A stretch of DNA of 64,000 nt from Escherichia coli (GCF_044324785.1 NZ_CP172127.1), one strand, 5' to 3'; positions 30,976 through 63,673 are shown, counted from the first letter of the stretch. Program-made: numbers and translations. The notes: generated by a model from the sequence alone, not told the origin.

Positions 30976-31002
30976 AAAAAATAAGCCCGTGTAAGGGAGA
31001 TT
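30976..31002. other. attR: Prophage attR core (P2 27-bp att core AAAAAATAAGCCCGTGTAAGGGAGATT)
   Basis: Exact 27-mer at the junction between ogr and the host gene yegQ. Coincides with the 3' end of cyaR. The P2 core sequence is recalled from memory. Confidence 0.7.
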
Positions 31003-31062
31003 ACACAGGCTAAGGAGGTGGTTCCTGGTACAGCTAGCATTTTATGGGTTATGTTTTTCAGC
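30976..31062 (-). ncRNA. cyaR: CyaR (RyeE) Hfq-dependent small RNA, 87 nt
   Basis: Minus strand reads GCTGAAAAACATAACCCATAAAATGCTAGCTGTACCAGGAACCACCTCCTTAGCCTGTGTAATCTCCCTTACACGGGCTTATTTTTT: a CCUCCUU seed loop and a terminal hairpin with U-run. Lies between yegQ and the prophage end, as in K-12. Confidence 0.85.
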
Positions 31063-31146
31063 GAAACGGATGATAACCTTAATAAATGCAGCTGTATGTG
31101 ATCGGTTTCTAAGAATTTTCCATCCGGGAAAAATAATCGAAATTAA

Positions 31147-35380: not shown

Positions 35381-36103
35381 TTAAACGATGCGGCAGGCGT
35401 CGGCTTCCCAGCGGTAACCGACGCCGTAAACGGCGCGGATAAATGACTGTTCGGCGTCGAGAGATTCCAGCTTGCGACGCAGGTTTTTAATGTGGCTGTC
35501 GATGGTGCGGTCGGTTACTACGCGGTAGTCGTCATAAAGATGATTGAGCAATTGCTCGCGGGAGAACACTTTTCCTGGTTCATGAGAGAGCGTTTTCAGC
35601 AGACGAAATTCCGCAGGCGTCAGGTCAAGCATTTTACCGCGCCATGAAGCCTGAAAACGACCTTCGTCGATAATCAACGGGCTTTCAGCATCCTGTTGCT
35701 GCAACTCACGCTGCGGTTTGCAACGGCGCAAAATGGTTTTGACGCGCGCTACCACTTCCCGTGGGCTGTACGGTTTGCAGATGTAGTCATCTGCGCCAAT
35801 TTCCAGCCCCAGCAGGCGGTCGATCTCTTCGATTTTTGCTGTCACCATCACGATCGGAATGTCAGAAAAATGACGAATCTCCCGACACAGCGTCAGGCCA
35901 TCGGTACCTGGCAGCATCAGATCGAGCAGGATCAGATCCGGCGGCGACTGGTGAACGTAGGGCAGTACCTGATCGCCGTGGCTGATAAGCGTCGGCGCAT
36001 AGCTCGCAGCACGCAGATAATCAATGAGCAACTGCCCCAGCTTCGGTTCATCTTCCACGATCAAAATACGCGGTGTGTTTTCGTCGATTGGTAACTCGGT
36101 CAT
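35381..36103 (-). CDS. baeR: Envelope-stress response regulator BaeR (240 aa)
   Basis: OmpR-family receiver plus winged-helix domains. Overlaps the baeS stop. Confidence 0.95.
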
Positions 36104-37503
36104 ACTTCTCTCTGTAAATCCCGTTCCAGCGGTAACTCTACTGTAATGCTTACCCCGCCAAAAGGCGAATGGGCAGCAATAATGCGGCCATTATGGGCTT
36201 CAACAATGTTCAGGCAAATCGCCAGCCCCAGCCCGGAACCGCCGCTGGCGCGGTTGCGGGAACCTTCGGTGCGATAAAAACGTTCAAACAATTTTTGTAG
36301 CTGATCGTCACTGACGCCCGGCGCGCTGTCAGCAAAGGTCAGGCGCACCGTTTTGTCGTGCTGCTCGGCAGAGATTTTCAGGCTGCCGCCACTGTCAGTG
36401 TAGCGCAGGCTGTTTTCCAGTAAGTTATTGAATAACTGCATTAAACGGTCGCGATCGCCAAATACGGTAATACTGTCTGGCAGGGAAAATTGCAGTTTCA
36501 GGCCACGGCTGGCGAATCGTTCGCGAAATGCGCCGCCCGCCACTTCCAGCAGTGGGATCAAATCTACCGGTGCTTTTTGATAGGCGAGAGCGCCTTCATC
36601 AGACATCGACAACTGATGGAGATCGTCAACCAGTTTGGTCAGTGTACCGACCTCCGCCTGTAAAGACGCCACCGTCTCCGGCGTGAATTTACGCACGCCA
36701 TCCTGAATGGCTTCCAGTTCACCGCGCAGCACCGCTAATGGCGTACGCAGTTCGTGAGAAATATCGGCCATAAAATCGCGCCGCATTTGCTGGTTTTTCT
36801 CCAGCGTGCTGGCAAGCTGGTTGAAGTCTTGCGCCAGTTTGCCCAGTTCATCTTCACTGGTGGGCGTCACGCGGGTTGTGAAATCGCCCGCCGCCAGTTT
36901 GTGCGTGCCGTCCACCAGCCGTTTGACCGGGGCCAACAGACCACGCGCCAGCAGAAAGGTGGCGAGCGCCGCGAGTAACGTTGCCAGGGCGACAATCAGC
37001 CAGCTGGTTTGCCGCTGTTGTTTATCGAAATTGATATCAGTATTGCGGGTCAGTCGCTCAACAGGGGAGGCAATCACCGCACCCACTTCCGCACCGTTGA
37101 CCAGAATGGGTCGCCGTGTACCGTCAGGTGGAATCGGCGCTCGCGGACCAACCAGCACTTTGTTGTTTTGATCAACCACCCAGAACTGAGTACGCCAGCC
37201 GTGTGGTGGCATACCCGGGCCGGGTTTATCTTCCGAATTATCGTGTTCAAATGAGCGCAGGATCTGAAAGACAAAGCGATCATTGTTGCGCAGGAAGCGC
37301 CAGTTGCCATGCTGCGCATACTGCTCGCCAAGCGCATCACTTAACAGTTGTAATCGCTGTTCATTACCATGCTTGATGTAATCAATAAAGCCACGCTCAA
37401 AACTGATACGCACCGCCCAGTGCATACTGATCAGCAAGACAATGCAGGTGGCGAAAATCGCCAGAAACAGTTTACCGGTAATACCGGGTCGCCAGAACTT
37501 CAT
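36100..37503 (-). CDS. baeS: Sensor histidine kinase BaeS (467 aa)
   Basis: Transmembrane segments, HAMP, H-box HELRTPL and ATPase domain. Upstream of baeR. Confidence 0.95.
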
Positions 37504-38915
37504 TGCGCGCTCCTTTTTCGCCGCGAAATAGCTACATTTTGATGCGTATCGTTCGGCACTCTGGCAAAGATGAACGCCGGAAGGGCGATGATCAACGCCA
37601 TGCTAAGCCAGGTGTACATAAAGACGGTTTGTGTGGTGCCGCTGTCGATGCTGACATGCTGCGAACCAAAAAGCCCCAGCAACAGCCCGGCGATGGTGAC
37701 GCCGATACTCATCGACAATTGCATAATCATCGACAGCAGACTGTTGCCGCTGCTCGCCAGATTGTCCGGAAGATCTTTCAGCGTCAGGGTGTTCATGGAG
37801 GAGAAACGGGTCGAGTTGACCATCCCTTGTAAAAACAGGACGAACGGCAAAACGTAGTACCAGCCCAGCAGAGCGGTAGTCATAAACAATAGGGTGACCA
37901 GCGACAGACCCAGCGTGGTCGCCACCAGTACCCGACGATAACCAAAGCGATTCACTACCTGTACCACAATTCGCTTCATCCCCATGCTGCCGAGCACCAT
38001 CGGGATCATCATCAGTCCGGCATGAAACGGTGAGAAGCCAAGGCCAATTTGCAGGAAAACCGGCGTCATAAAGGGCAACATGCCGCTACCGATACGTCCG
38101 GCAAAACTCCCCGCCAGGCCCAGCGAAAAGGTACGAGTGCGGAACAGTTTCAGACTGAAAAGAGCGCGGTTGTTATTTCTGGCGTGCAGCAGATAAAGCA
38201 CCAGTGCTACCACGCCAACAGCGACCAGGCCAGTAATCGCCAGCGGCGATAAACCTGTACCTTTACTGCCATCCAGCGCCAGGGTTAATACCGCCATGCC
38301 AACCGCCAGCAATAAAAAGCCGGAAAGATCAAAGCGCCGCGTCTGCATGGTGTAGTTCGGCATCAACATTAGTGTTGCGATCGCACCGATAATCCCCACC
38401 GGAATGTTGATCAAAAAGATCCAGTGCCACGATGCGTACTCCACCAGCAGACCGCCGAGCGCCGGACCCAGCAGCGGACCGACCTGACCGGGCAGTGTGA
38501 CAAAGGTCATCGCCGCCATATATTGCTCGCGCGGTACGATTTTCATCACCGTCAATCTGCCGACCGGCACCATCATCGCACCGCCAACGCCCTGTAACGC
38601 GCGTGCCAGCAACAGTTCGTTTAGCGTGCCGGAAAGCGCGCAAAACAGTGAACCGAGAGTAAACAGTACGATGGCGGTAAAGAAAATATTGCGCACGCCG
38701 ACTTTGTCCGCCAGCCAGCCGCTGGCGGGCAGCATCACCGCCACGGTCAGCACATAAGAGACAATGACCATGTGCATATGCAACGGACTTTCCCCGAGGC
38801 TTTGCGCCATTGAGGGAAGCGCGGTGTTGACGATGGTGGTGTCCAGCGACTGCATAAAGAAGCCGAAAGCCACAATCCACAATTGCCAGCGGGTGCTGTC
38901 GGGAAGATCTGTCAT
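37500..38915 (-). CDS. mdtD: MFS transporter MdtD (471 aa)
   Basis: Polytopic MFS protein. Position in the mdtABCD-baeSR operon. Confidence 0.95.
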
Positions 38916-41900
38916 TTACTCGGTTACCGTTTGTTTAGGTTTACGCGAAAAACGCAGCCGCAGACGGTCGAAAAAGAGATACACCACCGGCGTGGTATAC
39001 AGCGTCAGAAGCTGGCTCATTACCAGACCGCCGACAATGGTGATCCCCAGGGGTTGGCGCAGCTCCGAACCGTCACCGCCCGACAATACCAGCGGCAGCG
39101 CGCCAAACAGCGCCGCCAGGGTAGTCATCATAATCGGGCGAAAACGCAGCAGACAGGCCTGGAAAATAGCTTCCTGCGGCGTCAGGTTACCGTGCCGTTG
39201 GGCTTCAAGCGCAAAATCGACCATCATAATGGCGTTTTTCTTCACGATGCCGATTAATAGCATGATCCCTATCAGGGCGATTAGGCTGAACGGGGCATTG
39301 AACAGCTCCAGCGCCAACAGCGCTCCAACGCCCGCCGAGGGCAGGGTGGAGAGAATCGTCAGCGGATGTACGTAACTCTCGTAAAGGATACCCAGCACGA
39401 TATACACCGTGGCGATGGCGGCGATAATCAGGATCACCTGCGAGTTCATCGTCTCCTGGAACACCTGCGCTGTTCCGGCAAAACTGCCGCGCACCGTCGA
39501 AGGCACGCCAAGTTGCGTCATTGCGCGATCGATCGCCGCACTGGCGTCCGAGAGCGATTTTCCGGTCGGCAGGTTAAACGAAATGGTCGAGGCTGCCGAT
39601 AACCCCTGATGATTCACCGACAGCGGAGCATTCGCCGGTTGCCATTTAGCGAAATACGACAGCGGGATCGCTTTTCCTTCGTTATTGATAACGAACATTT
39701 TTTCCAGCGCACTGATGTCCTGGGTATAGCGCGGATCCACTTCCATCACCACTTTATACTGGTTCATCGGCTGGTAAATGGTCGAGATTTGTCGCTGACC
39801 GAAGGCGTTATTTAACAGGCTGTTGGCGGCCTGCACGTCGATTCCCAGCCGTGCCATAGTGTCGCGGTCGTAAACCAGATTCATCTCCGCGCCGTTATCC
39901 TGCTGGTCGGAGTTCACGTCCGCCAGTTCCGGCAATGTCGCCAGTTTTTTGCGGATTTTCGGCTCCCATTCGCGCAGTGCCGCCAGGTCGTCGGACAGCA
40001 ACGTGTACTGATAGCTGGCGTTCGACTGACGTCCGCCAACGCGAATATCCTGTACCGCCATCAGGAACAGATTCGCCCCCGGTTCTTTCGCCAGCTTCAC
40101 CCGCAGACGGTCGATAATTTGCTGCGCCGTTTCGCTGCGTTCGCCGCGTGGCTTGAGGGTGATAAACATCATCCCGCTGTTCACCCGCGAACCGCCGGTA
40201 AATCCGGTGACATTATCCACTGCCGGATCGTCACGGATAATTTTCATGAAATCCTGCAACTTACCGCGCATCGCCTGAAACGAAATACTCTGATCCGCCT
40301 GTATCCCGCCCATCAACACGCCGGTGTCCTGCTCCGGGAAGAAGGTTTTCGGGATCGAGATATATAGCCAGATATTCAGCGCAATGGTGCCAAGCAGCAC
40401 CACGCCCACCAGACGGGTATGATTGAGCACCCATTTCAGTGACTTGCCGTAGCTTTGTTGCAGGGCTACCAACATGCGACCAAAACCACGCAGACGCTTT
40501 TGCTCGCGCGGCTTGCTGGCTTTCAGCATCCAGCCGCACATCATCGGCGTTAGCGTCAGGGAAACCAGCAACGAAATCCCAATGGCGACAGAAAGCGTCA
40601 CGGCAAATTCGCGTAACAGGCGGCCCGGCAATCCGCCCATCAACAGTAGCGGCAGGAACACCGCCACCAGTGACAGACTCATTGATAGCACCGTAAAGCC
40701 GACTTCACGGGTGCCTTGCAGCGCGGCCTGTAGCGGTTTCATCCCCGCTTCCAGATGACGGGCAATGTTTTCCAGCACCACGATGGCGTCATCCACCACA
40801 AAGCCAGTGGCGATGGTGAGCGCCATTAACGACAGGTTATTGAGACTGAATCCGCACAGGTACATCGCCGCAAAAGTACCAATCAGCGAAACCGGCACCG
40901 CAACGGCGGGAATAATAGTGGCGCGACCCGAGCGTAGGAATAAAAAGACCACCAGAATCACCAGCGCCACCGAGATAATCAACGTTTGCTCGACTTCCTC
41001 CAGCGAGGCGCGAATGGTGGGGGAGCGATCCTGAGCAATTTGCAGATCAATCGCCGCCGGAATGGTCTCCTGCAACTCCGGTAATTTTGCCCGGATGCTG
41101 TCAACCGTCTGGATAATATTGGCTTCCGGCAGCTTGCGGATCATCAGCAAAATAGCCGGTTTGGCGTTGGTCATCCCGGCGTTGCGCACATCCTGCACTG
41201 AGTCGGTCACCGTCGCCACATCGCCCAGACGAACCGCGCCGCCGTTGTTGTAATGAATAATTAACGGCTGATATTCAGCGGCGGTTTTTAGCTCATCATT
41301 GGTCTGGATCTGCCAGCGGTGAGTGCTATCTTCCAGCGCCCCCTGCGGTTTACGCACGTTGGCATTGCTGATGGCAGTGCGAACATCGTCCAGCGACACG
41401 CCCTGATTAAACAGCGCCTGCGGATTCAGCCCGACGCGCACGGCGGGCAGTGAGCTGCCGCCAACATCGACATCACCGACACCGTCGATTTGCGAAATCG
41501 TCGGAGCCAGCTGCGTCGAGGCGAAATCGTACAGTTCACCCTGCGAATAAGTATCGGATGTCAGCGTGAGGATCATAATTGGCGCATCCGACGGGTTCGC
41601 TTTGCGATAGGTCGGACGGCTGGGCATCCCACTGGGCAGCAAACTTTGTGCAGCGTTGATCGCCGCCTGCACATCACGCGCTGCGCCGTTGATATCCCGG
41701 TCAAAATCAAACTGCAAAATAATGCGCGTGCTGCCGAGCGAACTACTGGAGGTCATTTCACTAACCCCGGCAATGCGCCCAAGTGAGCGTTCCAGCGGTG
41801 TGGCAACGGAAGACGCCATTGTCTCCGGCGATGCACCGGGCAGCGAGGCGCTGACCATAATCACCGGAAAATCGACCTGTGGCAGCGGGGCGACCGGCAG

Positions 41901-41993
41901 CATACGGAAGCCCAGTATGCCGCACAGGGTAATGGCGACCGACAGTAAAATCGTCGCCACCGGGCGGTAAATGAAGAGGGCAAAAAACTTCAC
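38916..41993 (-). CDS. mdtC: RND multidrug efflux pump subunit MdtC (1025 aa)
   Basis: RND architecture. Operon position. Confidence 0.95.
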
Positions 41994-44900
41994 TTACGCC
42001 TCCTCTTCATGACGAGCAAAGCGGCTTTTGGTCCACAATGCCAGACGGTCGAATAGCAGATAAATCACCGGCGTGGTAAACAGCGTCAGCACCTGGCTGA
42101 CAATCAGACCGCCGACCATGCCGATCCCTAACGGACGACGCAGTTCCGCGCCGACCCCGGTACTCAACATCAGCGGCAGCGCGCCAAGCAGAGCCGCCAG
42201 GGTGGTCATCAGGATCGGACGAAAACGCAACAGACAAGCCTGGTAGATTGCATCGCGTGGCGACATGCCTTGCTCGCGCTCAGCAGCCAGCGCGAAGTCG
42301 ATCATCATGATGGCGTTCTTCTTCACGATACCGATCAGCAAAATAATGCCGATAATCGCAATCACATCCAGCTCGCTACCGGCAATCAGTAGCGCCAGCA
42401 GTGCGCCGACCCCTGCGGTGGGTAGCGTCGAGAGAATGGTGATCGGGTGAATAAAGCTCTCGTACAGAATGCCGAGCACGATATACATCGCCACCACCGC
42501 CGCGACAATCAGCCAGACAGTGCTGCCAAGCGCCGACTGGAAGGCGAGGGTGCTGCCCTGGAACTGCGTGGTGATATCCACTGGCAGATTCAGCGTCTTC
42601 TCGGTGTCCATAATCGCCTGCACCGCATCGCCCAGCGAATAGTTATCCGGCACGTTAAAGGAGATGGTCGTTACCGGGAACTGATCCAGATGGTTGATGG
42701 AAAGCGGCGCAAAACGCTGCTCAATTTTGGCAATTGAGCTTAACGGCACCACGCCACCGTCGCTGCTGGTCAGGCGAATGGTATCCAGCGCCGCGAGGCC
42801 TGGGGTATTTTCGGTGTTGTGTTCCAGCACTACGCGATACTGGTTAGCCTGAGTATAAATAGTGGAAATCAGCCGCTGACCAAACGCGTTGTACAGGGCG
42901 TTATCGACATCCGCCATGCTGATCCCCAGACGGCTGGCGCTGTCGCGATCAACGTTGACATACGCCACCAGCCCTTGGTCCTGCCAGTCGCTGGAGACAT
43001 CAGAAAGCTGTGGCAGTTGCTGGAGTTTTTCCATCAACTGTGGCACCCAGGTACTGAGCGCATCCAGTGACGTGGCCTGTAAGGTAAACTGGTACTGGGT
43101 GCGGCTGACCTGAGTATCAATAGTCAGGTCCTGCGTTGGTTGCAGGAAGAGATCGACGCCCGGCACTTTATCTACTGCCGTTTGCAAACGAGCGATGACT
43201 TTTTGCACCCGATCATCACGTTCATCCAACGGTTTGAGGTTGATCTGTAAACGCGCACTGTTCAGCGACGGGTTAGTGCCATCAACGCCAACAAATGAGG
43301 TCAGGCTTTGCACTGCCGGATCCTGCAAAATCACATCCGCGACCTGGCGTTGCCGCTGGGCCATATTGGCAAAGGAGCTGGATTGCGGTGCCTGCAAAGT
43401 GCCCTGAATAATGCCGTTGTCCTGTACCGGGAAGAAACCTTTCGGAATGAACACCCACAACAGCACGCTAAGCAGCAGCGTGCTGAGCGCCACGCTTAAG
43501 GTCAGCCACGGATGATTCAGCACTTTCGCCAGTCCCTGACCATAGGCGGCGATTATCCTGTCGAACATTTTTTCCGAGGCACGGGAGAAGCGGTTCTGTT
43601 TACGCAGCGACTCCTGGCTGAGCATCCGCGCACACATCATCGGTGTCAGGGTCAGCGACACCACGGCTGAGATCAAAATCGCGACTGCCAGAGTAATAGC
43701 AAATTCGCGGAACAGTCGCCCGACGATATCGCCCATAAATAGCAGTGGGATCAACACTGCAATCAGTGAGAAGGTCAGCGAGATAATGGTAAAGCCGATT
43801 TCACCCGCGCCCTTGAGCGCCGCCGCCAGCGGTTTTTCGCCTTTTTCGATATAGCGGGAAATGTTTTCGATTACCACGATGGCGTCATCGACCACGAATC
43901 CGGTGGCGATAGTTAACGCCATCAGCGTCAGGTTATTGATTGAAAAATCGAGAAACACCATAACCGCAAAGGTGCCAATTAACGACAGCGGCACTGCGAC
44001 GCCAGGAATGATGGTCGCCGGAATATTGCGCAAAAACAGGTAGATAATCATGACTACCAGCGCGATAGCCATCATCAGTTCAAACTGGGTATCGTCGACC
44101 GATGCGCGGATGTTGGTGGTGCGGTCAGAAAGCACCGTCACTTTTACCGATTTCGGCAAACTCTCGGTGAGTTGTGGCAGCATCTGCCGGATGCTGTCGG
44201 CGGTGGAGATAATGTTAGCACCGGGCTGGCGCTGAACATTCATCACAATGGCCTGTTCTTTGTTCGCCCACGCGCCGAGCCAGCTGTTTTCTGCTCCTTG
44301 CTCTACGGTTGCGACATCGCCCAGACGAATCGGCGCGCCGTTCTGGTAGGCGATGATCAGCTGGCGATACTCTTCGGCGGATTGCATCTGGTCGTTCGCG
44401 GAAAGTGTGACCGCACGAGAAGGGCCGTCGAGGCTACCTTTTGCCGAGTTAACGTTAGCGCCGGTAATAGCGGTGCGCACGGTTTCGCTGGTCAGGCCGA
44501 GGGCGGCAATCGCCTGGGCGTTAAGTTTGACGCGAACAGCCGGACGCTGGCCGCCGGAAAGCGTCACCAGGCCGACGCCGGAAATCTGCGAGATTTTCTG
44601 CGCGACGCGGGTTTCCACCATATCTTCCACTTGCGTCATTGGCATGGCGGTTGAGGTGACGGCGAGCGTCATGATTGGTGGATCTGCCGGGTTCACTTTG
44701 CTGTAAACCGGCGGGTTAGGCAGATCGCCCGGCAACAAGTTGGTCGCAGCGTTAATCGCGGCCTGCACCTCCTGCTCGGCGACATCGAGCGGTAATGTTA
44801 GCTGGAACTGCAAAGTGATAACTGACGCACCGCCGGAACTTTGCGACGACATCTGTTTCAGGCCGGACATCTGCCCGAACTGGCGTTCGAGCGGCGCGGT

Positions 44901-45116
44901 AACGGCAGAGGTCATGACATCCGGGCTCGCACCTGGGTAGAGCGTGACCACCTGAATGGTCGGATAGTCCACTTCCGGCAGCGCCGAAACGGGCAGGGCG
45001 CGATAACCGATAATCCCGGCGAGTAAGATCGCCACCATCAGCAGCGTGGTGGCGACAGGACGCATAATAAACAGGCGCGACGGGCCGCCTGTGCTGCTAG
45101 GAGGTAACACCTGCAT
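41994..45116 (-). CDS. mdtB: RND multidrug efflux pump subunit MdtB (1040 aa)
   Basis: RND architecture. Operon position. Confidence 0.95.
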
Positions 45117-46363
45117 CAGGAGCGTGCTCCTTTTTTCGCGTATTCGCGGCTGGTGGCTTTCTCTTCCGGAGTGGTGGCGCTCTGGGCTTCCACCACTTCC
45201 ACTTTCGCCCCTTCGGTCAGGCGATCAATGCCGTCTGTCACCACGCGGTCGCCCGCAGAAATACCTGCGCGGATCACCACTTTCTGACTGTCCTGAATGC
45301 CCGGCGTCACCAGATGTTTGCTGACCTTGTTTTCGCTATTCAGCACCCAGACAAAATGGCCTTCATTGCCCATTTGCAGGGCGGCGGTGGGGATCACCAC
45401 GGCGTTTTGTTCGGTGTCGACTAACATACGCGCGTTAACAAACTGATTGGGAAACAGCGCATCCTCCTGATTATTAAAGCGTGCTTTCACTTTAATCGTA
45501 CCGGTAGTGGCATCGATTTGGTTATCGAGACTTAACAGCGTGCCTTCACTTAATTTCTTCGAGTTGGTGCGATCCCAGGCTTCAACAACCAGCGGTTTTC
45601 CGGCTTTTTGCGCCTGTACTACGGTAGTGATATCGCTTTCCGGCAGGGTAAAGAGCAAATCGATAGGATGCGTCTGGGTGATCACCACAATCCCGGTGGT
45701 ATCACCACTGGAGATTTGGTTACCAACATCAACCTGCTTGAGACCAACGCGACCATCGACTGGTGCGGTGATGCGGCTCCAGTCGAGTTGCAGCTGCGCG
45801 CTGGCGACGCTTGCTTCATCAGCCTTAATGGTGCCTTCTGTTTCACTGACCAGCGCTTGTTGGGCATCCAGTTCCTGACGAGATACGAGATTGGTTTTTA
45901 CCAGTTGTTGATAACGCGCCAGGTCACGGCGGGCGTTGGCAAGCGTGGCTTTATCTTTTGCCAGTTGGCCCTGGGCTTGTGCTAATGCAACTTTGAACTG
46001 GCTGGGGTCAATTTCTGCCAATAAATCGCCTGCTTTGACCTGCTGGCCTTCCTGGAAATGTAACGCCATCAGTTGACCGTCCACGCGGCTGCGCACCGTA
46101 ACGGTATTAGCGGCGGTAATGGTGCCAAGCCCGGTGAGATAACGTGGCACAGCTTGTTCTACGGCAGTCGCCGCCTGAACCGGGGCTAATGGGCCGGCAC
46201 GCATACCACGGCGACCACCCGCTGGCGATTGCTGCGCTTGTTTGGTCGCCCCTGGGGCTGCACTCTGGGAGTCATTGCGGCCTTGCCAGAACCAGAATGC
46301 GGCGATGGCGGCGATAACCACCACGATTACGATTACCCAACGGGATTTATAACTGCCTTTCAT
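45116..46363 (-). CDS. mdtA: RND efflux membrane fusion protein MdtA (415 aa)
   Basis: ORF track start at 46510 trimmed to [15 protein letters not shown] (signal/anchor). Confidence 0.9.
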
Positions 46364-46587
46364 CGTTAAGAGTTTCTCTTCCTGAAACGTTTCGCGGAAT
46401 GATACTAGTGTAGCCAGCCAATAAGGGAGAAAAATGGAGGAATTATGAAACACTGTCGGGAATCGTCTGAATGACGGGCACATTTGCGAGCACGCATCCA
46501 GTAATAACACATGAAACTATTTTATCTACGCGTTAGCGATAGACTGCTTGCATGGCGAAAGGAGGTAAGCCGACGATTTCAGCGGGA

Positions 46588-46735
46588 CGCTGAAACGGGA
46601 AAGCCCCTCCCGAGGAAGGGGCCATAAATAAGGAAAGGGTCATGATGAAGCTACTCATCATCGTGGTGCTCTTAGTGATTAGCTACCCAGCATACTAAGA
46701 CTACCAGGGCGGGGGAAACCCCGCTCTACCCTCAC
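46588..46735 (-). ncRNA. sibB: Sib antisense sRNA, antitoxin to the first ibs (boundaries approximate)
   Basis: In the Ibs/Sib family the antitoxin RNA is encoded antisense and spans the whole toxin ORF. Minus-strand hairpin GGCCCCTTCC-TCG-GGAGGGGC at about 46596..46619 is a plausible 3' terminator. Ends not determined. Confidence 0.4.
46642..46698 (+). CDS. ibsB: Ibs-family type I toxin peptide (18 aa, MMKLLIIVVLLVISYPAY)
   Basis: Short hydrophobic ORF with AAGGAAAGGG Shine-Dalgarno. Copy adjacent to mdtA. Symbol assigned by synteny and similarity to K-12 IbsB as recalled. Confidence 0.7.
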   Translation: MMKLLIIVVLLVISYPAY

Positions 46736-46914
46736 TCCTGAAAGTATGCCTTCACGATAAGATTGTCAATCTGCAGGCTTTGCAGTCTGCGATCCTGCCA
46801 GCAAATATTCTTTGCGAGACGTTACGCAATAATCACATGTGAAACTATTTTATCCGCAAGTCAGCGATAGACTGCATTCAGGGCGAAAGGAGGTAAGCCG
46901 ATGATTTCAGCGGG

Positions 46915-47062
46915 ACGCTGAAACGGGAAAGCCCCTCCCGAGGAAGGGGCCTTAAATAAGGAAAGGGTCATGATGAAGTGGATCATCATCGTGGTGCTCT
47001 TAGTCATAAGCTTCCCGGCTTACTAAGACTACCAGGGCGGGGGAACCCCCGCTCTACCCTCA
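46915..47062 (-). ncRNA. Sib antisense sRNA for the middle ibs copy (boundaries approximate)
   Basis: Same architecture as the first unit, shifted by one repeat period. Confidence 0.4.
46969..47025 (+). CDS. Ibs-family type I toxin peptide (18 aa, MMKWIIIVVLLVISFPAY), middle copy
   Basis: Second repeat unit. Same architecture as the other two copies. Confidence 0.7.
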
Positions 47063-47244
47063 CTCCTGAAAGTATGCCTTCACGATAAGATTGTCAATCT
47101 GCAGGCTTTGCAGTCTGCGATCCTGCCAGCAAATATTCTTTGCGAGTCGTTACGCAATAATCACAGAGGAAACTATTTTGTTCACGCGTTAGCGATAGAC
47201 TGCATTCAGGGCGAAAGGAGGTAAGCCGACGATTTCAGCGGGAC

Positions 47245-47392
47245 GCTGAAACGGGAAACCCTCTCCCGGAGAAGAGGGCTTTTAATAAGGAAAGGGTTAT
47301 GATGAAGCACGTCATCATACTGGTGATACTCTTAGTGATTAGCTTCCAGGCTTACTAAGAACACCAGGGGGAGGGGGAAACCTCTCCCTAAC
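47245..47392 (-). ncRNA. sibA: Sib antisense sRNA for the third ibs copy (boundaries approximate)
   Basis: Same architecture as the first unit, shifted by two repeat periods. Confidence 0.4.
47299..47358 (+). CDS. ibsA: Ibs-family type I toxin peptide (19 aa, MMKHVIILVILLVISFQAY)
   Basis: Third repeat unit adjacent to yegL. IbsA-like. Confidence 0.7.
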   Translation: MMKHVIILVILLVISFQAY

Positions 47393-47578
47393 CCTCACTC
47401 CTGAAATTATGTCACTCCGCCCTTAGTGTCAATCGACGGCTCTCCGTTCTTGCGAGGCGAATAGCAAAATTTTCTGCGCCGCCGGGCCTAATTCTGAAAG
47501 TTTCTTCGTTTGCTCTTATTTCATTGTTGCGGTCGGTATGATACCGGGCCTCAATAATTCTCTAAGAAAGGATTTCTT

Positions 47579-48238
47579 ATGAGCGAACAAATCACGTTTG
47601 CCACCAGCGATTTTGCCAGTAACCCGGAACCACGTTGCCCCTGCATTTTGCTGTTGGATGTTTCTGGTTCGATGAGTGGTAGACCTATTAATGAACTTAA
47701 CGCCGGATTGGTTACCTTTCGCGATGAACTGCTTGCCGACCCGCTGGCCTTAAAAAGAGTGGAACTCGGCATTGTGACGTTCGGCCCGGTGCATGTGGAA
47801 CAACCCTTTACCAGCGCCGCTAATTTTTTCCCGCCCATCCTGTTTGCCCAAGGCGATACACCAATAGGCGCTGCCATTACCAAAGCCCTGGATATGGTAG
47901 AGGAGCGCAAACGTGAGTATCGTGCAAATGGTATTTCGTATTATCGCCCGTGGATTTTCCTGATCACCGATGGCGCTCCAACCGATGAGTGGCAGGCTGC
48001 CGCCAACAAAGTGTTTCAGGGGGAAGAAGATAAGAAGTTTGCCTTCTTTTCCATCGGTGTTCAGGGGGCGGATATGAAGACTTTGGCACAAATCAGCGTT
48101 CGTCAGCCTTTTCCACTGCAGGGATTACAATTCCGTGAACTGTTTAGCTGGTTATCCAGTTCACTGCGTTCGGTTTCCCGCTCCACGCCGGGAACGGAAG
48201 TTGTGCTGGAAGCGCCAAAAGGCTGGACGTCAGTGTGA
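47579..48238 (+). CDS. yegL: von Willebrand factor A domain protein YegL (219 aa)
   Basis: MIDAS motif [11 protein letters not shown] near the N-terminus. Confidence 0.9.
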
Positions 48239-48996
48239 GCTGGCGTCTGGTCTATGCATCAACCGTTGGAACGTCGCACATCAGCGCGGACTTGCCTTGC
48301 CAGGATGCCTGCCAGATGCAGGTTGCCTGGTTAAATGACCAGCAGCCATTATTGTCGGTATTTGTCGCTGATGGCGCAGGCAGTGTCTCGCAGGGTGGCG
48401 AAGGCGCGATGCTCGCCGTCAATGAAGCGATGGCTTATATGTCGCAAAAAGTGCAGGGCGGGGAATTGGGGCTTAATGATGTCCTCGCCACGGATATTGT
48501 GCTGACCGTTCGTCAGCGACTTTTTGCCGAGGCGGAAGCCAAAGAATTAGCTGTTCGCGATTTTGCCTGCACGTTTCTGGGACTGATTTCATCGCCTAAC
48601 GGCACCCTGATTATGCAGATTGGCGATGGCGGCGTGGTGGTAGATTTGGGGCACGGTCTGCAACTGCCGCTCACGCCGATGGTGGGTGAATATGTCAACA
48701 TGACGCACTTCATTACCGATGAAGATGCGGTTTCCAGACTGGAAACTTTCACCAGCACTGAGCGTGCGCACAAAGTTGCAGCATTTACGGATGGTATCCA
48801 GCGGCTGGCGTTAAATATGCTGGATAATTCTCCCCATGTGCCTTTCTTTACCCCGTTTTTCAATGGGCTGGCGTCAGCAACGCAGGAACAACTCGATTTA
48901 TTACCTGAATTGTTAAAGCAGTTTTTGTCCAGCCCGGCGGTAAACGAGCGTACCGATGATGATAAAACGTTGGCACTGGCGCTGTGGACAGAATGA
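48235..48996 (+). CDS. yegK: PP2C-type Ser/Thr phosphatase YegK/PphC (253 aa)
   Basis: Overlaps the yegL stop. PP2C-like aspartate-rich motifs (FVADGAGS). Confidence 0.85.
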
Positions 48997-49060
48997 ACAT
49001 CGCATGGCGGTTGAAGACAACAGTTCAACCGCCAGTTTAAGCAATCAATATAATGGCTGG

Positions 49061-49522
49061 TTAGCGAACTAATTTTGCTCTTAGCTCGTCGGCTTCTTCT
49101 TTTGGATAGGTGACCAATAAAGGATCAATGGTATAACCGCCGTAAATTTTATCCCCGCGTGTATACATCCAGTCTGAAATATCTTCTTTCTTGATTTTCC
49201 ACTCCTGACCATATTCTACGTTTGTAACAATACCAGGGTCATTGCTTATTACGCCAATAAACATGCCGTTAGAATAAGTGACATCCGTGAGCCAGAAATG
49301 CTCGGTTCTTCCGTGATCGGTTATCGGGGCTTTGACTGCGAAAGTATCGGCATCTTTTTTATTCATAACCTCGATGAATTTATCAGTTTCTTTCCGCGCA
49401 TGTTGAATGGCGTCAGACATCGCTTGTTTATCATAACCTCCCGTCACTAACGTATCCGAAACTTCACTAAAGCCCGCGGTAGTAAAAAATAGCAGACTCA
49501 ACATAAGTAATATCTTTTTCAT
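49061..49522 (-). CDS. yegJ: Secreted DUF2314-family protein YegJ (153 aa)
   Basis: Signal peptide MKKILLMLSLLFFTTAGFS. Position. Confidence 0.85.
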   Translation of the reverse strand: MKKILLMLSLLFFTTAGFSEVSDTLVTGGYDKQAMSDAIQHARKETDKFIEVMNKKDADTFAVKAPITDHGRTEHFWLTDVTYSNGMFIGVISNDPGIVTNVEYGQEWKIKKEDISDWMYTRGDKIYGGYTIDPLLVTYPKEEADELRAKLVR

Positions 49523-49722
49523 TTTTTCTCCAGAATCCCTGTGTAGTAAAAGTTAGCAATAAACCTGTGGAAGTGAATCATTATCAGGTTGGAATTGAAT
49601 TGTATCCTGATGAAATTGCATTATCATTTTTATTCTTGAGTGGGACTCTTCCCATATAGAAATAATTATAATAGGCAGTGTTATTATTCATTGAAATATA
49701 ATATGACTGCCCTTGAAACATT

Positions 49723-51669
49723 ATGAAGACAAATATAAAAGTATTTACATCGACAGGTGAATTGACCACTCTCGGGCGTGAACTGGGCAAAGGTGGCGAA
49801 GGCGCGGTTTATGATATCGAGGAGTTAGTCGATAGCGTCGCCAAGATTTATCACACGCCGCCACCCGCCTTAAAACAGGACAAACTTGCCTTTATGGCTG
49901 CGACAGCTGATGCGCAGTTGCTGAATTATGTCGCCTGGCCGCAGGCAACGCTTCACGGTGGACGAGGCGGAAAAGTAATCGGTTTTATGATGCCAAAAGT
50001 TTCTGGTAAAGAACCGATTCATATGATCTATAGCCCGGCACATCGTCGTCAACGTTACCCTCATTGTGCGTGGGATTTTCTACTCTATGTTGCGCGCAAT
50101 ATTGCTTCATCTTTTGCTACGGTTCACGAGCACGGGCATGTCGTGGGTGACGTAAACCAGAACAGCTTTATGGTAGGCCGTGACAGCAAAGTGGTGTTGA
50201 TTGATAGCGACTCCTTTCAGATTAACGCCAATGGCACACTGCATTTATGCGAAGTCGGCGTGTCGCATTTTACGCCGCCAGAGCTGCAAACCTTGCCATC
50301 ATTTGTCGGCTTTGAACGCACCGCGAATCACGATAATTTTGGCCTTGCGTTGCTGATTTTTCACGTCTTGTTTGGTGGTCGGCATCCTTATTCCGGTGTA
50401 CCGCTTATCTCTGATGCGGGTAATGCACTGGAGACGGATATTGCCCATTTCCGTTATGCCTACGCATCAGATAATCAGCGACGTGGTTTAAAACCGCCGC
50501 CACGATCTATTCCGCTGTCGATGTTACCAGGTGATGTTGAAGCCATGTTTCAGCAGGCATTCACGGAAAGTGGCGTGGCAACCGGGCGTCCGACGGCAAA
50601 AGCGTGGGTAGCGGCACTTGATTCTCTACGCCAACAGTTAAAGAAATGTACCGTTTCGGCAATGCATGTTTACCCCGGTCATTTGACTGACTGCCCGTGG
50701 TGTGCGCTGGATAATCAAGGCGTTATCTATTTTATTGATCTCGGCGAAGAGGTCATTACCACCAGCGGTGATTTTGTGCTGGCGAAAGTCTGGGCGATGG
50801 TGATGGCGTCAGTTGCACCACCAGCATTGCAACTGCCATTACCCGATCATTTCCAACCGACTGGCAGGCCGCTTCCTTTAGGCCTGTTACGGCGTGAATA
50901 CATCATTCTGATTGAGATCGGACTGTCAGCGTTATCGCTGTTGCTTTGCGGCCTTCAGGCAGAACCGCGTTATATTATTTTGGTTCCTGTGCTGGCGGCT
51001 ATCTGGATTATTGGCAGCCTGACAAGCAAAGCGTACAAAGCAGAAATCCAGCAACGCCGTGAGGCGTTTAATCGCGCGAAAATGGACTATGACCATTTAG
51101 TCAGCCAGATCCAACGGTTGGGCGGGCTGGAAGGTTTTATCGCCAAACGGACGATGCTCGAAAAAATGAAGGACGAAATTCTTGGGTTACCGGAAGAAGA
51201 GAAACGCGCTCTGGCAGCACTTCAGGACACCGCAAGGGAACGGCAGAAGCAGAAGTTTCTGGAGGGATTTTTTATTGATGTTGCCTCTATTCCCGGCGTT
51301 GGCCCTGCGCGTAAAGCGGCGTTACGGTCCTTTGGTATTGAAACGGCGGCAGACGTTACCCGACGGAGCGTTAAGCAAGTTAGAGGTTTTGGTGATCATC
51401 TGACCCAGGCGGTTATCGACTGGAAAGCAAGTTGCGAACGCCGTTTTGTGTTCAGGCCGAATGAAGCGGTAACGCCAGCAGACAGACAAGCGGTAATGGC
51501 AAAAATGGCCGCCAAACGACATCGGCTGGAATCGACGTTGACTGTCGGCGCGACAGAGTTGCAGCGATTCCGCCTTCATGCTCCAGCACGGACCATGCCG
51601 TTGATGGAACCTTTACGTCAGGCGGCAGAAAAACTGGCTCAGGCGCAGGCTGATTTAAGCCGTTGCTGA
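49723..51669 (+). CDS. yegI: Eukaryotic-like Ser/Thr protein kinase YegI (648 aa)
   Basis: Glycine-rich loop LGKGGEGAVY, catalytic-loop-like HGHVVGDVNQNSFMV, C-terminal transmembrane and coiled-coil region. Confidence 0.9.
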   Translation: MKTNIKVFTSTGELTTLGRELGKGGEGAVYDIEELVDSVAKIYHTPPPALKQDKLAFMAATADAQLLNYVAWPQATLHGGRGGKVIGFMMPKVSGKEPIHMIYSPAHRRQRYPHCAWDFLLYVARNIASSFATVHEHGHVVGDVNQNSFMVGRDSKVVLIDSDSFQINANGTLHLCEVGVSHFTPPELQTLPSFVGFERTANHDNFGLALLIFHVLFGGRHPYSGVPLISDAGNALETDIAHFRYAYASDNQRRGLKPPPRSIPLSMLPGDVEAMFQQAFTESGVATGRPTAKAWVAALDSLRQQLKKCTVSAMHVYPGHLTDCPWCALDNQGVIYFIDLGEEVITTSGDFVLAKVWAMVMASVAPPALQLPLPDHFQPTGRPLPLGLLRREYIILIEIGLSALSLLLCGLQAEPRYIILVPVLAAIWIIGSLTSKAYKAEIQQRREAFNRAKMDYDHLVSQIQRLGGLEGFIAKRTMLEKMKDEILGLPEEEKRALAALQDTARERQKQKFLEGFFIDVASIPGVGPARKAALRSFGIETAADVTRRSVKQVRGFGDHLTQAVIDWKASCERRFVFRPNEAVTPADRQAVMAKMAAKRHRLESTLTVGATELQRFRLHAPARTMPLMEPLRQAAEKLAQAQADLSRC

Positions 51670-51681
51670 GCAAGTTTTCAA

Positions 51682-53034
51682 TTAACGAAACACCACTTCC
51701 GCCCAGCGTGCCAGCCCGGCGGTGACGGAGCCAAAGTCATCGCCACCTGCAATCGGAATGCCCGGCAACTGTTCTGTCAGCGCTTTTTTAATCAGCGGTG
51801 AACGGGCGCTACCGCCGGTCAGATAGATAACATCCGGTTTTTCCTGGGCGTTATCCAGCGCCAGTTGCACCTGTTCCAGAATCCGCGCCAGCGGCTGGCT
51901 GAGGGCGCTTTCCAGCCCTTGTCGGCTAATCAGCGTTGCCAATTCATCGCTGATAAACGGCAGTGAGGCGCGGGTTTCCGCTACGCTTGAAAGCGCAATT
52001 TTGCTCTCTTCTGCGCTGCGCACCAGGCGATAGCTTAAACGCTGACGCCAGACTTTCTGTAACAGGGCCACTTTCTCCGGTTCGCGGGCATCGCGTACCA
52101 GATCGTTAAGCAGACGACCGTTGGCACTACTGTAGAAATCACTTTGCGCAGGGACGTCGTTGATGGCAACCGCATTCCACCACGGCAGGATCGGCAGGGC
52201 GATGCCTTTTTCGGTTTCGCCACCCATGCCAAGTAACGGCATCAGGTTTTTAAACGCCAGCGCGATATCCAGATCGTTACCACCAATACGGCAACCACTG
52301 TGACCCAGCAGGCTGGCTTCACGATCGAGACGCGAACGCCACTGCGGCCCCATCAGCAGCAATGAACAGTCAGTCGTACCACCGCCGATATCCACCACCA
52401 GCACCCGTTTTTCTTCCTGCAAGGTGGCTTCGTAATCCAGCCCAGCCGCGACCGGCTCGTACTGGAATACCACGTCCCTGAATCCGGCACGCTTCGCCGC
52501 GCGTTCCAGAATCCCTTGCGCCTGGGCGTTTGCTTCATCGCCGCCCAGCCCCTGGAAGTTGATCGGGCGACCAATCACCGCCTGAGTAATCGCTTCTGGC
52601 AGCTGCGCCTGCGCCTGCTGGCGAATGTGCAACATCATTGCGCAGACCAGATCCTCAAACAGCGCTACCTGCTGCGGTTTTAAGCCGCTGGCACCGAGGA
52701 ACGATTTTGGTGATTTCACAAACCACACTTCTTCTGGATCATCAATGTACTGTGCCAGTGAGGAAAGACCGAACTGCACGCTTTTCGCCGTAACATCGAT
52801 ATCTTCTTCGCGGTTATAACGAATCGCCCGACGCAACAGCGCCTGCGTTTCATCGTCGTCTGCCGGAACATCATGATGGCGGTACAGCCATTCGCTTACC
52901 GCTTCACGCGTTGGCGCGCAAAGCATTGAAGGCAGCAGCGTGCTGTCGTTTTCCATTTTTAGCAAGTGCGGTTTACCGTCACGCATGACCGCCACTGAAC
53001 AGTTTGCTGTACCGTAATCAAAACCAATAAACAC
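51682..53034 (-). CDS. yegD: Hsp70/actin-fold ATPase YegD (450 aa)
   Basis: GTG start giving (M)FIGFDYGTANCSVAV. DxGGGTTD phosphate-2 motif present. ORF track start at 53097 rejected. Confidence 0.9.
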   Translation of the reverse strand: MFIGFDYGTANCSVAVMRDGKPHLLKMENDSTLLPSMLCAPTREAVSEWLYRHHDVPADDDETQALLRRAIRYNREEDIDVTAKSVQFGLSSLAQYIDDPEEVWFVKSPKSFLGASGLKPQQVALFEDLVCAMMLHIRQQAQAQLPEAITQAVIGRPINFQGLGGDEANAQAQGILERAAKRAGFRDVVFQYEPVAAGLDYEATLQEEKRVLVVDIGGGTTDCSLLLMGPQWRSRLDREASLLGHSGCRIGGNDLDIALAFKNLMPLLGMGGETEKGIALPILPWWNAVAINDVPAQSDFYSSANGRLLNDLVRDAREPEKVALLQKVWRQRLSYRLVRSAEESKIALSSVAETRASLPFISDELATLISRQGLESALSQPLARILEQVQLALDNAQEKPDVIYLTGGSARSPLIKKALTEQLPGIPIAGGDDFGSVTAGLARWAEVVFR

Positions 53035-53167
53035 GAAATAATCCCCATGCCGGTGAAGAAGGGGCGTGACTTTAGCGAAATGTTGCCGTCGCGACAACCG
53101 GAATATGAAAGCAAAGCGTAGCGTCTGAATAACGTTTATGCTGAAAGCGGATTAACAAGGAGATGCG

Positions 53168-54025
53168 ATGTATACCCTGAACTGGCAGCCGCCATATGAC
53201 TGGTCGTGGATGTTGGGATTTCTCGCCGCCCGTGCGGTGAGCGGTGTTGAAACGGTTGCGGACGATTATTATGCCCGTAGTCTGGAGGTGGGCGAATATC
53301 GCGGCGTGGTGACTGCTATTCCGGATATAGCCAGCCATACTCTGCACATAAATTTAAGTGCAGGTTTAGAACCTGTTGCCGCTGAGTGTCTGGCGAAAAT
53401 GAGCCGCCAGTTTGATCTGCAATGTCACCCGCAGATTGTTAACGGTGCGTTGGGCAAGTTAGGCGCGGCGCGGCCCGGATTGCGTTTACCCGGCAGTGTT
53501 GATGCTTTTGAGCAGGGCGTGCGGGCGATTTTAGGCCAACTGGTGAGCGTGGCGATGGCGGCAAAATTGACCGCCAGAGTGGCACAGCTTTATGGCGAAC
53601 GGCTGGATGATTTTCCGGACTATGTCTGCTTCCCCACGCCTCAGCGGCTGGCTGCAGCCGACCCGCAGGCATTAAAAGCGTTAGGTATGCCGTTGAAACG
53701 GGCAGAGGCACTGATTCATCTGGCAAATGCGGCGCTGGAGGGCACCTTACCAATGACAATTCCGGGCGACGTAGAACAAGCGATGAAAACGCTGCAAACT
53801 TTTCCGGGTATCGGGCGCTGGACGGCGAATTATTTCGCCTTACGTGGCTGGCAGGCGAAAGATGTTTTCCTGCCGGATGATTATCTGATTAAACAGCGAT
53901 TTCCGGGAATGACACCGGCACAAATCCGCCGTTATGCCGAACGCTGGAAGCCCTGGCGTTCTTATGCGCTGTTGCATATCTGGTATACGGAAGGCTGGCA
54001 ACCAGACGGAACGGACGAATTGTAG
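53168..54025 (+). CDS. alkA: 3-methyladenine DNA glycosylase II AlkA (285 aa)
   Basis: MYTLNWQPPYDWSWMLGFLAARAV.... HhH-GPD motif GIGRWTANYFALRG with catalytic Asp context. Confidence 0.9.
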   Translation: MYTLNWQPPYDWSWMLGFLAARAVSGVETVADDYYARSLEVGEYRGVVTAIPDIASHTLHINLSAGLEPVAAECLAKMSRQFDLQCHPQIVNGALGKLGAARPGLRLPGSVDAFEQGVRAILGQLVSVAMAAKLTARVAQLYGERLDDFPDYVCFPTPQRLAAADPQALKALGMPLKRAEALIHLANAALEGTLPMTIPGDVEQAMKTLQTFPGIGRWTANYFALRGWQAKDVFLPDDYLIKQRFPGMTPAQIRRYAERWKPWRSYALLHIWYTEGWQPDGTDEL

Positions 54026-54062
54026 GCCTGATACGCCGCATCAGTCGATGGGGAAGCACGCC

Positions 54063-57000
54063 TTAGTTAATCGCGAAATAACTGCTATTCACCAGCAAAT
54101 CCAGCGGTTGGGCATCGGCAATCACATCGCCATAAATCAGATCGACGCCGATGCCAGAAAGCGTATCCATCACCAGGGGTAAAACGACTGGCCCGGCGAT
54201 GGTCTTCATCCCGAGCCGCTGAGCGTGCCCCTGAATGATCGTAATCAGCATCTCATCCATCAAATTTCCCTGCACGTTGGCGCATAACTCACCATCAAGT
54301 AGCAGATAATCTGCCATATTTGCTTTCAGCGAGTTGAAGATTTGCAGATCGCGGCCCACCTGACTGAATACGATCCGACATCCCGCCAGCCGCAGTTTTT
54401 GCACGCTTTCTGCGTGATCTAAAATCGCGTCTGCCGGAATAATCAGATGTAATAACCGTGGTGGTATAGGGCTATTTTCCAGCTGCTCAATTAGTTCATT
54501 CACCAGCGTGGCGCTACTCAAACCGGCAACGGAAAGGGGGAGGGCGATGCTTAAGCCTTTACTGGCAATCGCTTTTGCGGCCTGCTGGAAAAAATCGTGG
54601 AATACCCGTCGGTCAAGAGCATGGCTAAGTGCCGGATCGCTGAAGCTACGACGAAATGTTTGTTCATCAATAATCTCGCCTTCGCAACTCCAGAGCTTAA
54701 GTGAAATCAGCCACAAATTACGTGCTTCCGGGATCCGCGGCGAAGCGACACCGTGGGCGATCATCATCAACTGATTTTCTTTAATCATCCGCCACTGTTC
54801 ATCAAGCGATATCGCCGCCCGTTCGCTATGTGCGGCAGCTTGCTGTGGTTCGTAAACCGTCACGCGGCCCCGTCCACCATTTTTGGAGGCATAACAGGCG
54901 ATATCAGCCTGCGACATCACTTCTGCCGCCTGATGATTGTTGTCATCAATCAAGGTAATCCCGGCACTGGCACCTACCCGATGTACACGTCCTTCCCATA
55001 TAAAGTGATAGTCATTCACGGCACTGATAATGCGTGTAGCGATAAAACGCGCGCTTTCAACATTACAGTCTGGTAGCAGCAGACCAAATTCATCCCCACC
55101 GAGTCGCGCCAGCACGTCGCTGGAGCGCAGCATACTCAGCATCAACGACGCCAGTTCGCGCAGCAAAGCGTCGCCAGCGGCGTGCCCGGCGCTGTCATTC
55201 ACCGCTTTAAAGCGATCAAGATCGATAAACACCAGTGCATGTCGCTGATGTGTACTGTTTACCGTTTGCAGCAGGATGCGTAGTTGTTTCTCAAAACTGG
55301 CGCGGTTGGCGAGATGCGTCAGTGCATCATGGGAGGCGCTGTAGCTCAGCTGGCGCAGCATTTTACGCGATTCGGTGACGTCCTGAATCACCAGAACCGA
55401 ACCAATATTGCTGCCGTCCAGAGTACTTAACGGCGTAATACTGTAATGCACGTCGTAGCTGCCGCCGCTTCGGCAGTGCAACACCACATCTTGTTCAATC
55501 GCGGAACGTGAGGTGTCGGCACTGTAAATGTTCTCCATTAATGGTCCGTTGTCGCCAAAAGTAATATGCAACACCGTCAGGAGTGGAACACCTAACGCTT
55601 CTTCCTGCGTCCAGCCGCTCATCTTCTCCGCCACCGGATTCATAAAGGTAATTTTCATTGCCATATCAATACAGACCACGGCTTCGCCGATGGAATCCAG
55701 CGTTATGTGCAGGCGCTCTTTTTCCTGAAACAATGCCTCGTTAAGCTGTTTCACTTCGGTCATATCCATATTAATGCCGAGCAGGCGTTCGACTTCGCCT
55801 TCTTTATTCAGTACCCGGTTGGCGAGGGCGCGGATATGGCGAATACCGTCTTTCACGGTAATGCGAAATTCCAGTTTAAAGGGAGAGCGTGATTGCAATG
55901 AATCGCGAATCACTTTTTCGGCGTGCTGGCGATCTTCCGGCAGCACGCAGTCGTACCACACCTGCCAGTTCGGTTTGATATGCGGAGGAATTTCATACAG
56001 CTCGAACATCCGCTTATCCCAGCTAAAAATATTCGGCTTAAGCTCCCACTCCCAGATGCCAATCCCGCCCGCTTCGTTAGCCAGCGTGATGCGCTCCATC
56101 AGTTGCTGGTTCACCTGTTCGGTGCGTTTTAGCTCGTTAATGTCTTCAATCTGAGCGATAAAATAGAGCGGCGTGCCATCCGTGTGGCGCACCAGTGAGA
56201 CGGCAAGCAACGCCCAGACAACATCGCCATTGCGGTTGTAGTAGCGTTTTTCCATTGAATAGGTGTTTATTTCACCGCTTATCAGCTTTTCAACCTGTTG
56301 GAGATCTTTATTGAGATCCTCCGGCCAGGTCAGTTGCTGAAAGGTGAGTCCGCGCAGCTCTTCCTGACTGTAACCGAGAAACTGGCAGAGCGCTTTGTTG
56401 GATTGCAGCCATTGCCCCTCGGTGCCCACTAATGCCATGCCGATGGCGGAATATTCCATGGCATTACGAAAACGGGTTTCGCTTTCAGAGATGTGTTTGC
56501 GTTCCGCACGAAAGGCATACATCACCATCGTCATGATGTTGGCGGGCAGCAGGATCAGCAAAAACGGTAGCCACGGCATATGGCTCATCAGGTATGTACG
56601 CGGCGTAGCAAGCAGGGAGGGATCAGCGGCCATCATCAGTGACACCATCATCACCGTGGTAAGGAAGATCAAAAAGGCTTCCATTCGTGGCAGGCGCACG
56701 GCGCTCCACATCAACAGCACAATAATGAAAGTAAAAGGCCACGGCAGATACAGCATCGAAAGCCAGCTTAACGTCAGTGTGATGGCCAACGTGAGCAGCG
56801 ACTCAAAAAGCAACCGTGGGTTGCGATGGCGCAGCAGATAGTGTGGTTTAAATAACAATCCCAGCGGCACCAGTGCCAGTGCGCCGATGGATTCTGAAAG
56901 TACCCATATCAAAAATGCCCTGAGAGGATCGTCTCCGGGCGTCAGCAGGACAACCAGAACACCCCCCAACAGAGGCGGAACAATGGCGCTGCCGAGTGCC

Positions 57001-63661: not shown

Positions 63662-63673
63662 GGCGGTAGCGTG
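63662..63673 (+). promoter_or_regulatory. ops element (GGCGGTAGCGTG) within a JUMPstart sequence upstream of wza
   Basis: Exact ops 12-mer inside CAGTGTATTGGTAGCTAAAAAGCCAGGGGCGGTAGCGTG (63635..63673). Expected RfaH-dependent antitermination site of the colanic acid operon leader. Confidence 0.7.

Follow-up and report, generated by a model that had tools for sequence, protein, structure and literature searches.

The intergenic region between mdtA and yegL in the DNA analyzed here, a stretch of 64,000 nucleotides from Escherichia coli (the window), harbors a tandem array that we assign with high confidence to the chromosomal sibA/sibB locus of E. coli in its common three-unit form, consisting of three tandem and individually intact ibs/sib type I toxin-antitoxin modules. 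The three-unit array and its middle peptide are already known, common and annotated, and they represent an ordinary allele of a polymorphic locus. A mildly new angle is evolutionary only and concerns the mosaic make-up of the array, an apparently chimeric ibsB unit in K-12 and a divergence between units that seems to be focused on loops of the antisense RNA.

Analysis with Tandem Repeats Finder resolved the gap between mdtA and yegL (46364-47578, 1,215 bp) as one tandem array at 46502-47411 with a period of 328, 2.8 copies, 88% matches and a score of 1421, and the alignment of the three units gave a mean column identity of 89% (the array as a whole carries no strand). An earlier note on this DNA, made from the sequence alone, had placed three tandem ibs/sib type I units, one more than in K-12, at 46510-47490. 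This span proved adequate, and the number of units was borne out by the tandem repeat analysis, three Rfam matches and three open reading frames, compared to two units in MG1655. The observation is confirmed in every detail and far beyond chance. The left flank is formed by mdtA on the minus strand (45116..46363, start codon 46361-46363), as derived from the ORF list, a start-codon check and the PGAP annotation of strain N3 and a K-12 derivative. On the right, yegL on the plus strand (47579..48238; ORF list and annotated homologous regions) encodes an intact vWA-domain protein of 219 aa. The site of the array is that of sibA/ibsA and sibB/ibsB in MG1655, and the chromosomal context of this pair is kept in the window. 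The K-12 locus corresponds to the QUAD1a/b repeats. Within the array, units 1 and 2 are 92% identical and nearly the same in their 3' half (1 mismatch in ~108 nt), while either of them is ~72% identical to unit 3. As a side observation, yegL of strain N3, the closest relative (2779-3435 of the compared stretch), is annotated as a frameshifted pseudogene.

Each unit contains a short ibs open reading frame on the plus strand. The ORF of unit 1 (46642..46698) encodes 18 aa, MMKLLIIVVLLVISYPAY, identical to the peptide WP_001386901.1 and corresponding to K-12 IbsB with the exchange F15Y; the ORF of unit 2 (46970..47026), likewise of 18 aa, encodes MMKWIIIVVLLVISFPAY, identical to WP_012767741.1 and different from K-12 IbsB by L4W and L5I. 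The third ORF (47299..47358) is ibsA, whose 19-aa product MMKHVIILVILLVISFQAY is identical to K-12 IbsA (WP_010723109.1). In all three units the ORF comprises 18-19 codons, begins with MMK or MMR followed by a hydrophobic core and an aromatic C-terminus, and lies wholly within the Sib-complementary interval. It is preceded by the Shine-Dalgarno (SD) sequence AAGGAAAGGG, which was read directly at 4 nt upstream in unit 1. The claim that every unit combines a hydrophobic Ibs peptide of 18-19 aa with an antisense Sib RNA was found to be right, the peptides being as first written and the Sib RNAs following from Rfam homology.

It had further been stated that such tiny genes are usually missed by ORF callers. 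Historically this is correct, as Fozo et al. 2010 described tandem duplication of ibs-sib together with ORFs that were often overlooked by gene callers (PMC2887945), and the ibs ORFs were indeed absent from a generic ORF list of the window with a floor of 20 aa. It no longer applies to current annotation: RefSeq/PGAP labels all of these ORFs, the peptides of the window are identical to translated ORFs named Ibs family toxin in other genomes, and the same three ORFs are PGAP-annotated in N3, in O157:H7 and in many more genomes. The description of the middle copy as a distinct variant holds with respect to K-12 IbsB, from which the first copy differs likewise, so that neither B-type peptide of the window equals the K-12 peptide. 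The middle copy is not specific to this genome, since O157:H7, BL21(DE3), N3, PCP07083 and GPEC859 encode an identical peptide at the corresponding site of their arrays.

On the minus strand, an Rfam scan returned three matches to SIB_RNA (RF00113) at 46627-46769, 46955-47097 and 47284-47432 with 141.6, 137.8 and 149.5 bits, respectively, far above the gathering score of 56 (E-values of 3e-28 to 3e-31 for the whole window). All three are full-length, covering model positions 1-147, and beyond them the scan gave no Sib match in the 64-kb window. Model positions 1-30 of RF00113 correspond to the sib promoter (TTGACA...TAATTT), whereas the Sib terminator lies outside the model; because the model begins at the -35 box and lacks the terminator, the Rfam coordinates are shifted ~36 nt upstream of the RNA annotated in MG1655. 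The ends of the RNAs were consequently transferred from the MG1655 annotation of sibA (144 nt) and sibB (136 nt) by end-to-end alignment. In this annotation ibsA and ibsB are located wholly inside sibA and sibB on the opposite strand.

Thereby, a SibB-like RNA of 136 nt is predicted for unit 1 (46598..46733, minus strand) and another for unit 2 (46926..47061, minus strand), and unit 3 carries SibA with 144 nt (47253..47396, minus strand). The alignment to K-12 that the earlier note had proposed as a check gave 131/136 and 129/136 identical positions to SibB for units 1 and 2 (96% and 95% over the full length) and 143/144 to MG1655 sibA for unit 3. The predicted folds have free energies of -58.1, -62.2 and -58.5 kcal/mol, and the corresponding z-scores, taken against shuffled sequence, are -3.7, -4.5 and -4.9. 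The minimum free energy architecture is shared by all three RNAs and consists of a closing stem P1, three hairpins, a single-stranded anti-SD segment UCCUUAUU and a GC-rich terminator followed by UUUCC, the terminator hairpin of unit 1 being located at 46602-46623 on the minus strand. A consensus fold of 10 sequences, including K-12 SibA-E and two further alleles, contains 39 pairs, 8 of which exhibit compensatory changes.

Putative sib promoters were assigned on the minus strand of each unit. For unit 1 (46741..46769) the elements were read directly as TTGACA (46764-46769), a 17-nt spacer and TACTTT (46741-46746), with the +1 G at 46733. Unit 2 (47069..47097) exhibits TTGACA-17-TACTTT, and the promoter of sibA in unit 3 (47404..47432) TTGACA-17-TAATTT. 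In all three units the predicted promoter ends 7 nt upstream of the G that is homologous to the K-12 +1 position. In a generic scan of 46360-47580 for sigma-70 promoters and terminators, the number of sites did not exceed that in shuffled sequence, and neither the sib promoters, on account of their weak -10 boxes (3/6 matches in unit 1), nor the sib terminators were detected; both elements were therefore called from the folds and from their homology to the genes annotated in MG1655.

Since short reads can mis-assemble tandem repeats, the possibility had to be considered that a two-unit repeat had been falsely expanded. The units are only 72-92% identical and hence distinguishable, leaving no ambiguity for an assembler, the same arrangement is found in thousands of complete and mostly long-read genomes, and N3 matches the whole 1.7-kb interval in one piece with 99.5% identity. 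Because the units have diverged and the array recurs in complete genomes, a collapse or expansion of identical repeats is ruled out, and we regard the probability of any assembly artefact as negligible.

To place the locus among other genomes, the 1.3-kb interval was compared with 5,426 complete E. coli genomes and was matched in 5,419 of them. Among 60 records taken at even intervals from the 5,422 matching E. coli records, a sample that provides estimates and not full counts, ~25 carried three units (~42%), ~24-27 two units (~40-45%) and ~7 four units (~12%), and a separate evenly spaced sample of 40 rows agreed with these frequencies. The three-unit records of the larger sample span the same 1.7 kb; 15 of its two-unit records are K-12-like and 8 are devoid of an ibsA-type unit. 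ORFs designated as Ibs family toxin or ibsA were annotated by PGAP under every match in both samples. Evidently, the three-unit form is annotated and as common as the two-unit form, which makes the finding real but ordinary. Matches with at least 99% identity to the 136-nt Sib/ibs core are present in 816 E. coli records for unit 2 and in 1,504 for unit 1. Variation in gene number is also documented in the literature, seven Ibs genes having been counted in O157:H7 Sakai and five in K-12 (Fozo et al. 2010, PMC2887945).

The order of units can be followed by peptide residues 4-5 and 15. According to this code O157:H7 contains three units (IL..Y, WI..F, IbsA), BL21(DE3) and PCP07083 four (IL..Y, WI..F, LL..F, IbsA), GPEC859 also four (LL..Y, WI..F, IL..Y, IbsA), K-12 two (LL..F, IbsA) and RIVM_C040753 two (IL..Y, RL..W). 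The three-unit arrays of O157:H7 and N3 and the four-unit arrays of BL21(DE3), PCP07083 and GPEC859 possess the same organization as the window and the middle peptide WP_012767741.1. They differ from it in that unit 1 of O157 and BL21 carries I4 instead of the L4 present in the window, and in that the four-unit arrays contain one further B-type unit, LL..F in BL21 and IL..Y in GPEC859. Units 1, 2 and 3 of the window are 99.4%, 100% and 99.7% identical to units 1, 2 and 4 of GPEC859. Compared to K-12, the window shares the mdtA–yegL site, the orientation of toxin and antisense gene and an identical unit 3 peptide, but it contains three instead of two units, and K-12 IbsB is unlike the peptide of either B-type unit. 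As a separate observation, certain two-unit arrays without an ibsA-type unit end in a W15 variant, MMKRLIIVVLLVISWPAY or MMKILIIVVLLVISWPAY (RIVM_C040753, 1671-1727; Escherichia sp. E1V33), and the unit encoding this variant is intermediate between A and B types with 80-87% identity to both.

With respect to these data, it appears very improbable that unequal crossing-over recently duplicated the K-12 ibsB/sibB unit in this strain alone, which would make the array unusual. Both left units are SibB-like with 95-96% identity to K-12 SibB and share their near-identical 3' half, as would be expected from such a duplication. The two units are nevertheless only 92% identical, with 11 differences in the 136-nt Sib, at a locus whose flanks are 97-98% identical across E. 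coli; unit alleles with 99-100% identity occur in the unrelated strains GPEC859 and N3; the middle-unit peptide is common to O157:H7 and BL21(DE3); ~40% of the complete genomes in the 60-record sample carry three units; and the K-12 unit itself seems to be chimeric and derived. With units 1 and 2 diverged by 8% and their alleles common to unrelated strains, a recent private duplication is ruled out.

The variable-site table of 17 B-type units revealed that these units are mosaic. The clearest case is the ibsB unit of K-12 (1147-1282 of the MG1655 stretch), which was compared with units 1 and 3 of BL21(DE3). Over the 130 nt upstream it matches BL21 unit 1 with 0 mismatches and differs from BL21 unit 3 at 14 positions; the corresponding counts are 6 and 0 in the ORF and 5 and 2 downstream. 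Judged by these counts the K-12 unit is a clean chimera with an upstream part of the unit 1 type and an ORF as found in unit 3 of BL21-type arrays, and the K-12 array hence looks like a deletion product of a four-unit array. One crossover near the SD sequence and start codon between units 1 and 3 of such an array would delete two periods and generate the K-12 structure. The second unit of the window is mosaic as well, its upstream part showing 4 mismatches to BL21 unit 3 compared to 12 to BL21 unit 2, while its ORF is that of BL21 unit 2.

Unequal homologous recombination between units is thus supported as a mechanism by these sequence comparisons: the number of units (2, 3 or 4) would shift by recombination between the ~328-bp units, leaving mosaics behind. 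Of the earlier suggestion that copy number was expanded by unequal recombination, the recombination stands, as the mosaic units indicate. The direction is probably the reverse, given the K-12 chimera, the about equal frequency of three units and the existence of four-unit arrays, and K-12 is probably a deletion derivative, with a loss in K-12 rather than a gain in the window strain. For comparison, the sole outgroup found, Escherichia sp. E1V33, contains two B-type units between flanks of ~92-93% identity; it was the one locus returned by a search for the exact two-unit pattern in species-representative genomes, a pattern too strict to set the ancestral number.

How the units differ was analyzed with respect to the recognition elements described for SibC. 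As reported by Han et al. 2010 two independent elements of SibC start the pairing and set its specificity: TRD1 (+46 to +68), a loop that pairs within the ORF, and TRD2 (+99 to +115), which is single-stranded and pairs with the translation-initiation region with help of the P6 loop; both fall into the regions that vary most within the Sib family (PMC2943612). The RNA architecture of sibC/ibsC is the same as in the window, and TRD1 and TRD2 map onto segments that differ between the window units, although SibC is a single-copy gene at another locus with 56-60% nucleotide identity to the Sib RNAs of the window. Sib 1 and Sib 2 differ at 11 positions (16, 42, 45, 49, 54, 57, 80-83 and 110), corresponding to five in TRD1, four in the P6 loop, one in TRD2 and one in the P2 loop. 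Nine of these differences fall on unpaired positions (hypergeometric P = 0.0014, post hoc test). In TRD1 18 of 23 positions match between units 1 and 2 and the longest common run is 4 nt, whereas in TRD2 19 of 20 positions match and a perfect common run of 26 nt extends over the translation-initiation region.

A difference mainly in Sib loops and recognition elements fits the published model of cognate-pair discrimination, as far as it can be read from the two sequences. The B-type pairs are likely discriminated through TRD1, and cross-repression through TRD2 could take place. Taken together, we see about an even chance that the array consists of recombining, mosaic cassettes (2-4 units), that ibsB/sibB of K-12 is a chimera left by a deletion that joined units 1 and 3 within a four-unit array like that of B strains, and that selection focuses the divergence on the TRD1 and P6 loops and thereby keeps the pairs orthogonal, with cross-repression via TRD2 as a possibility.

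The toxicity of Ibs peptides involves membrane damage. In analogy to the K-12 pairs, each unit would produce Sib constitutively from its own minus-strand promoter. This RNA, predicted to be complementary to the entire ORF and translation-initiation region of ibs, would pair with the ibs mRNA from the same unit via TRD1 (ORF loop) and TRD2 (anti-SD). This pairing would block translation and trigger decay of the mRNA, whereas Ibs escaping repression would insert into the inner membrane and lead to a collapse of energy metabolism. For the units of the window we infer transcription, repression, toxicity and cognate specificity from the literature, in which repression and toxicity were shown experimentally only for the K-12 pairs (PMC2943612) and for Salmonella IbsA (10.1101/2025.05.26.656083). 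According to the latter preprint Salmonella IbsA inhibits Fo proton translocation and Fo ATP synthase (10.1101/2025.05.26.656083).

Alternatively, one or more units might be decaying relics that are silent or encode a non-toxic peptide, leaving the function of the two K-12 modules or fewer. It was reported that ibsA is tolerated by SibA-deficient cells (Han et al. 2010, PMC2943612), and IbsB of MG1655 is annotated merely as a putative toxic peptide, both in line with such a decay. All elements are nevertheless intact in every unit, namely the ORF, SD sequence, start codon, sib -35 box TTGACA, terminator and Sib fold, and the alleles of units 1 and 2 are conserved in the large number of records given above. 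Furthermore, the differences between the units avoid the Sib stems in the post hoc test already described, which argues for continued constraint on the RNA. We consider decay of one or more units unlikely and prefer three individually intact modules.

Small hydrophobic toxins with an sRNA antitoxin that are duplicated within one intergenic region are also known from ldr/rdl and zorO-orzO/zorP-orzP, and their copy number varies between strains as in the ibs/sib array (Fozo 2010, PMC2887945). Their sequences are unrelated to ibs/sib, and their antitoxins overlap only the 5' region or are divergently encoded. In contrast, Sib spans the whole ibs ORF and the translation-initiation region.

Beyond correct annotation the array is of little import, since the family, its mechanism, the tandem organization and the variation of copy number between strains are published and the exact ORFs are present in RefSeq. 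The comparison indicates that K-12 is not the reference state of the locus, three units being at least as common and the K-12 ibsB unit apparently recombinant. For work on Sib/Ibs specificity, or for a deletion of supposedly all ibs genes, strains other than K-12 contribute extra, sequence-distinct units that have to be counted in. The natural pair of units 1 and 2, which differ in TRD1 and the P6 loop and hardly in TRD2, lends itself directly to testing the two-domain recognition model.

A near-invariant block precedes each ibs ORF on the plus strand, defined by the columns of the three-unit alignment at 46536..46597, ~46864-46925 and ~47192-47252. It comprises ~60 nt outside the Sib transcript and hardly varies, even when A-type and B-type units are compared. 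By its position and conservation this block is presumed to be the ibs promoter and 5' UTR or leader; a search for an ibs promoter within it did not find a convincing -35/-10 pair. The block contains the motif AAGGAGGT at 46559, 46887 and 47215 (plus strand), a strong SD-like sequence ~83 nt before each ibs start codon. The motif might act as a standby or leader element, or it might have its partner in the CTCCT located just past the ORF. In unit 2 a C-to-T exchange at 46902 generates an ATG 6 nt past AAGGAGGT and with it a mini-ORF of 6 codons, MISAGR* (window 46887-46921). The corresponding position is ACG in units 1 and 3, and the same T is present in unit 2 of N3 and GPEC859.

With regard to the wider surroundings, the best match to the 20 kb around the locus (window 36000-56000) among the 5,426 complete E. 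coli genomes was strain N3 with 98.2%, followed by matches of at most 97.7%, and the strain analyzed here apparently represents an Escherichia lineage that has been little sampled. The Rfam scan of the window also detected the CyaR/RyeE sRNA at 30979-31064 on the minus strand (100.7 bits) and a JUMPstart element at 63635-63673 on the plus strand (57.3 bits), presumably upstream of the colanic-acid cluster, both of which are consistent with the gene order usual for E. coli in the surroundings of mdtABCD-baeSR.
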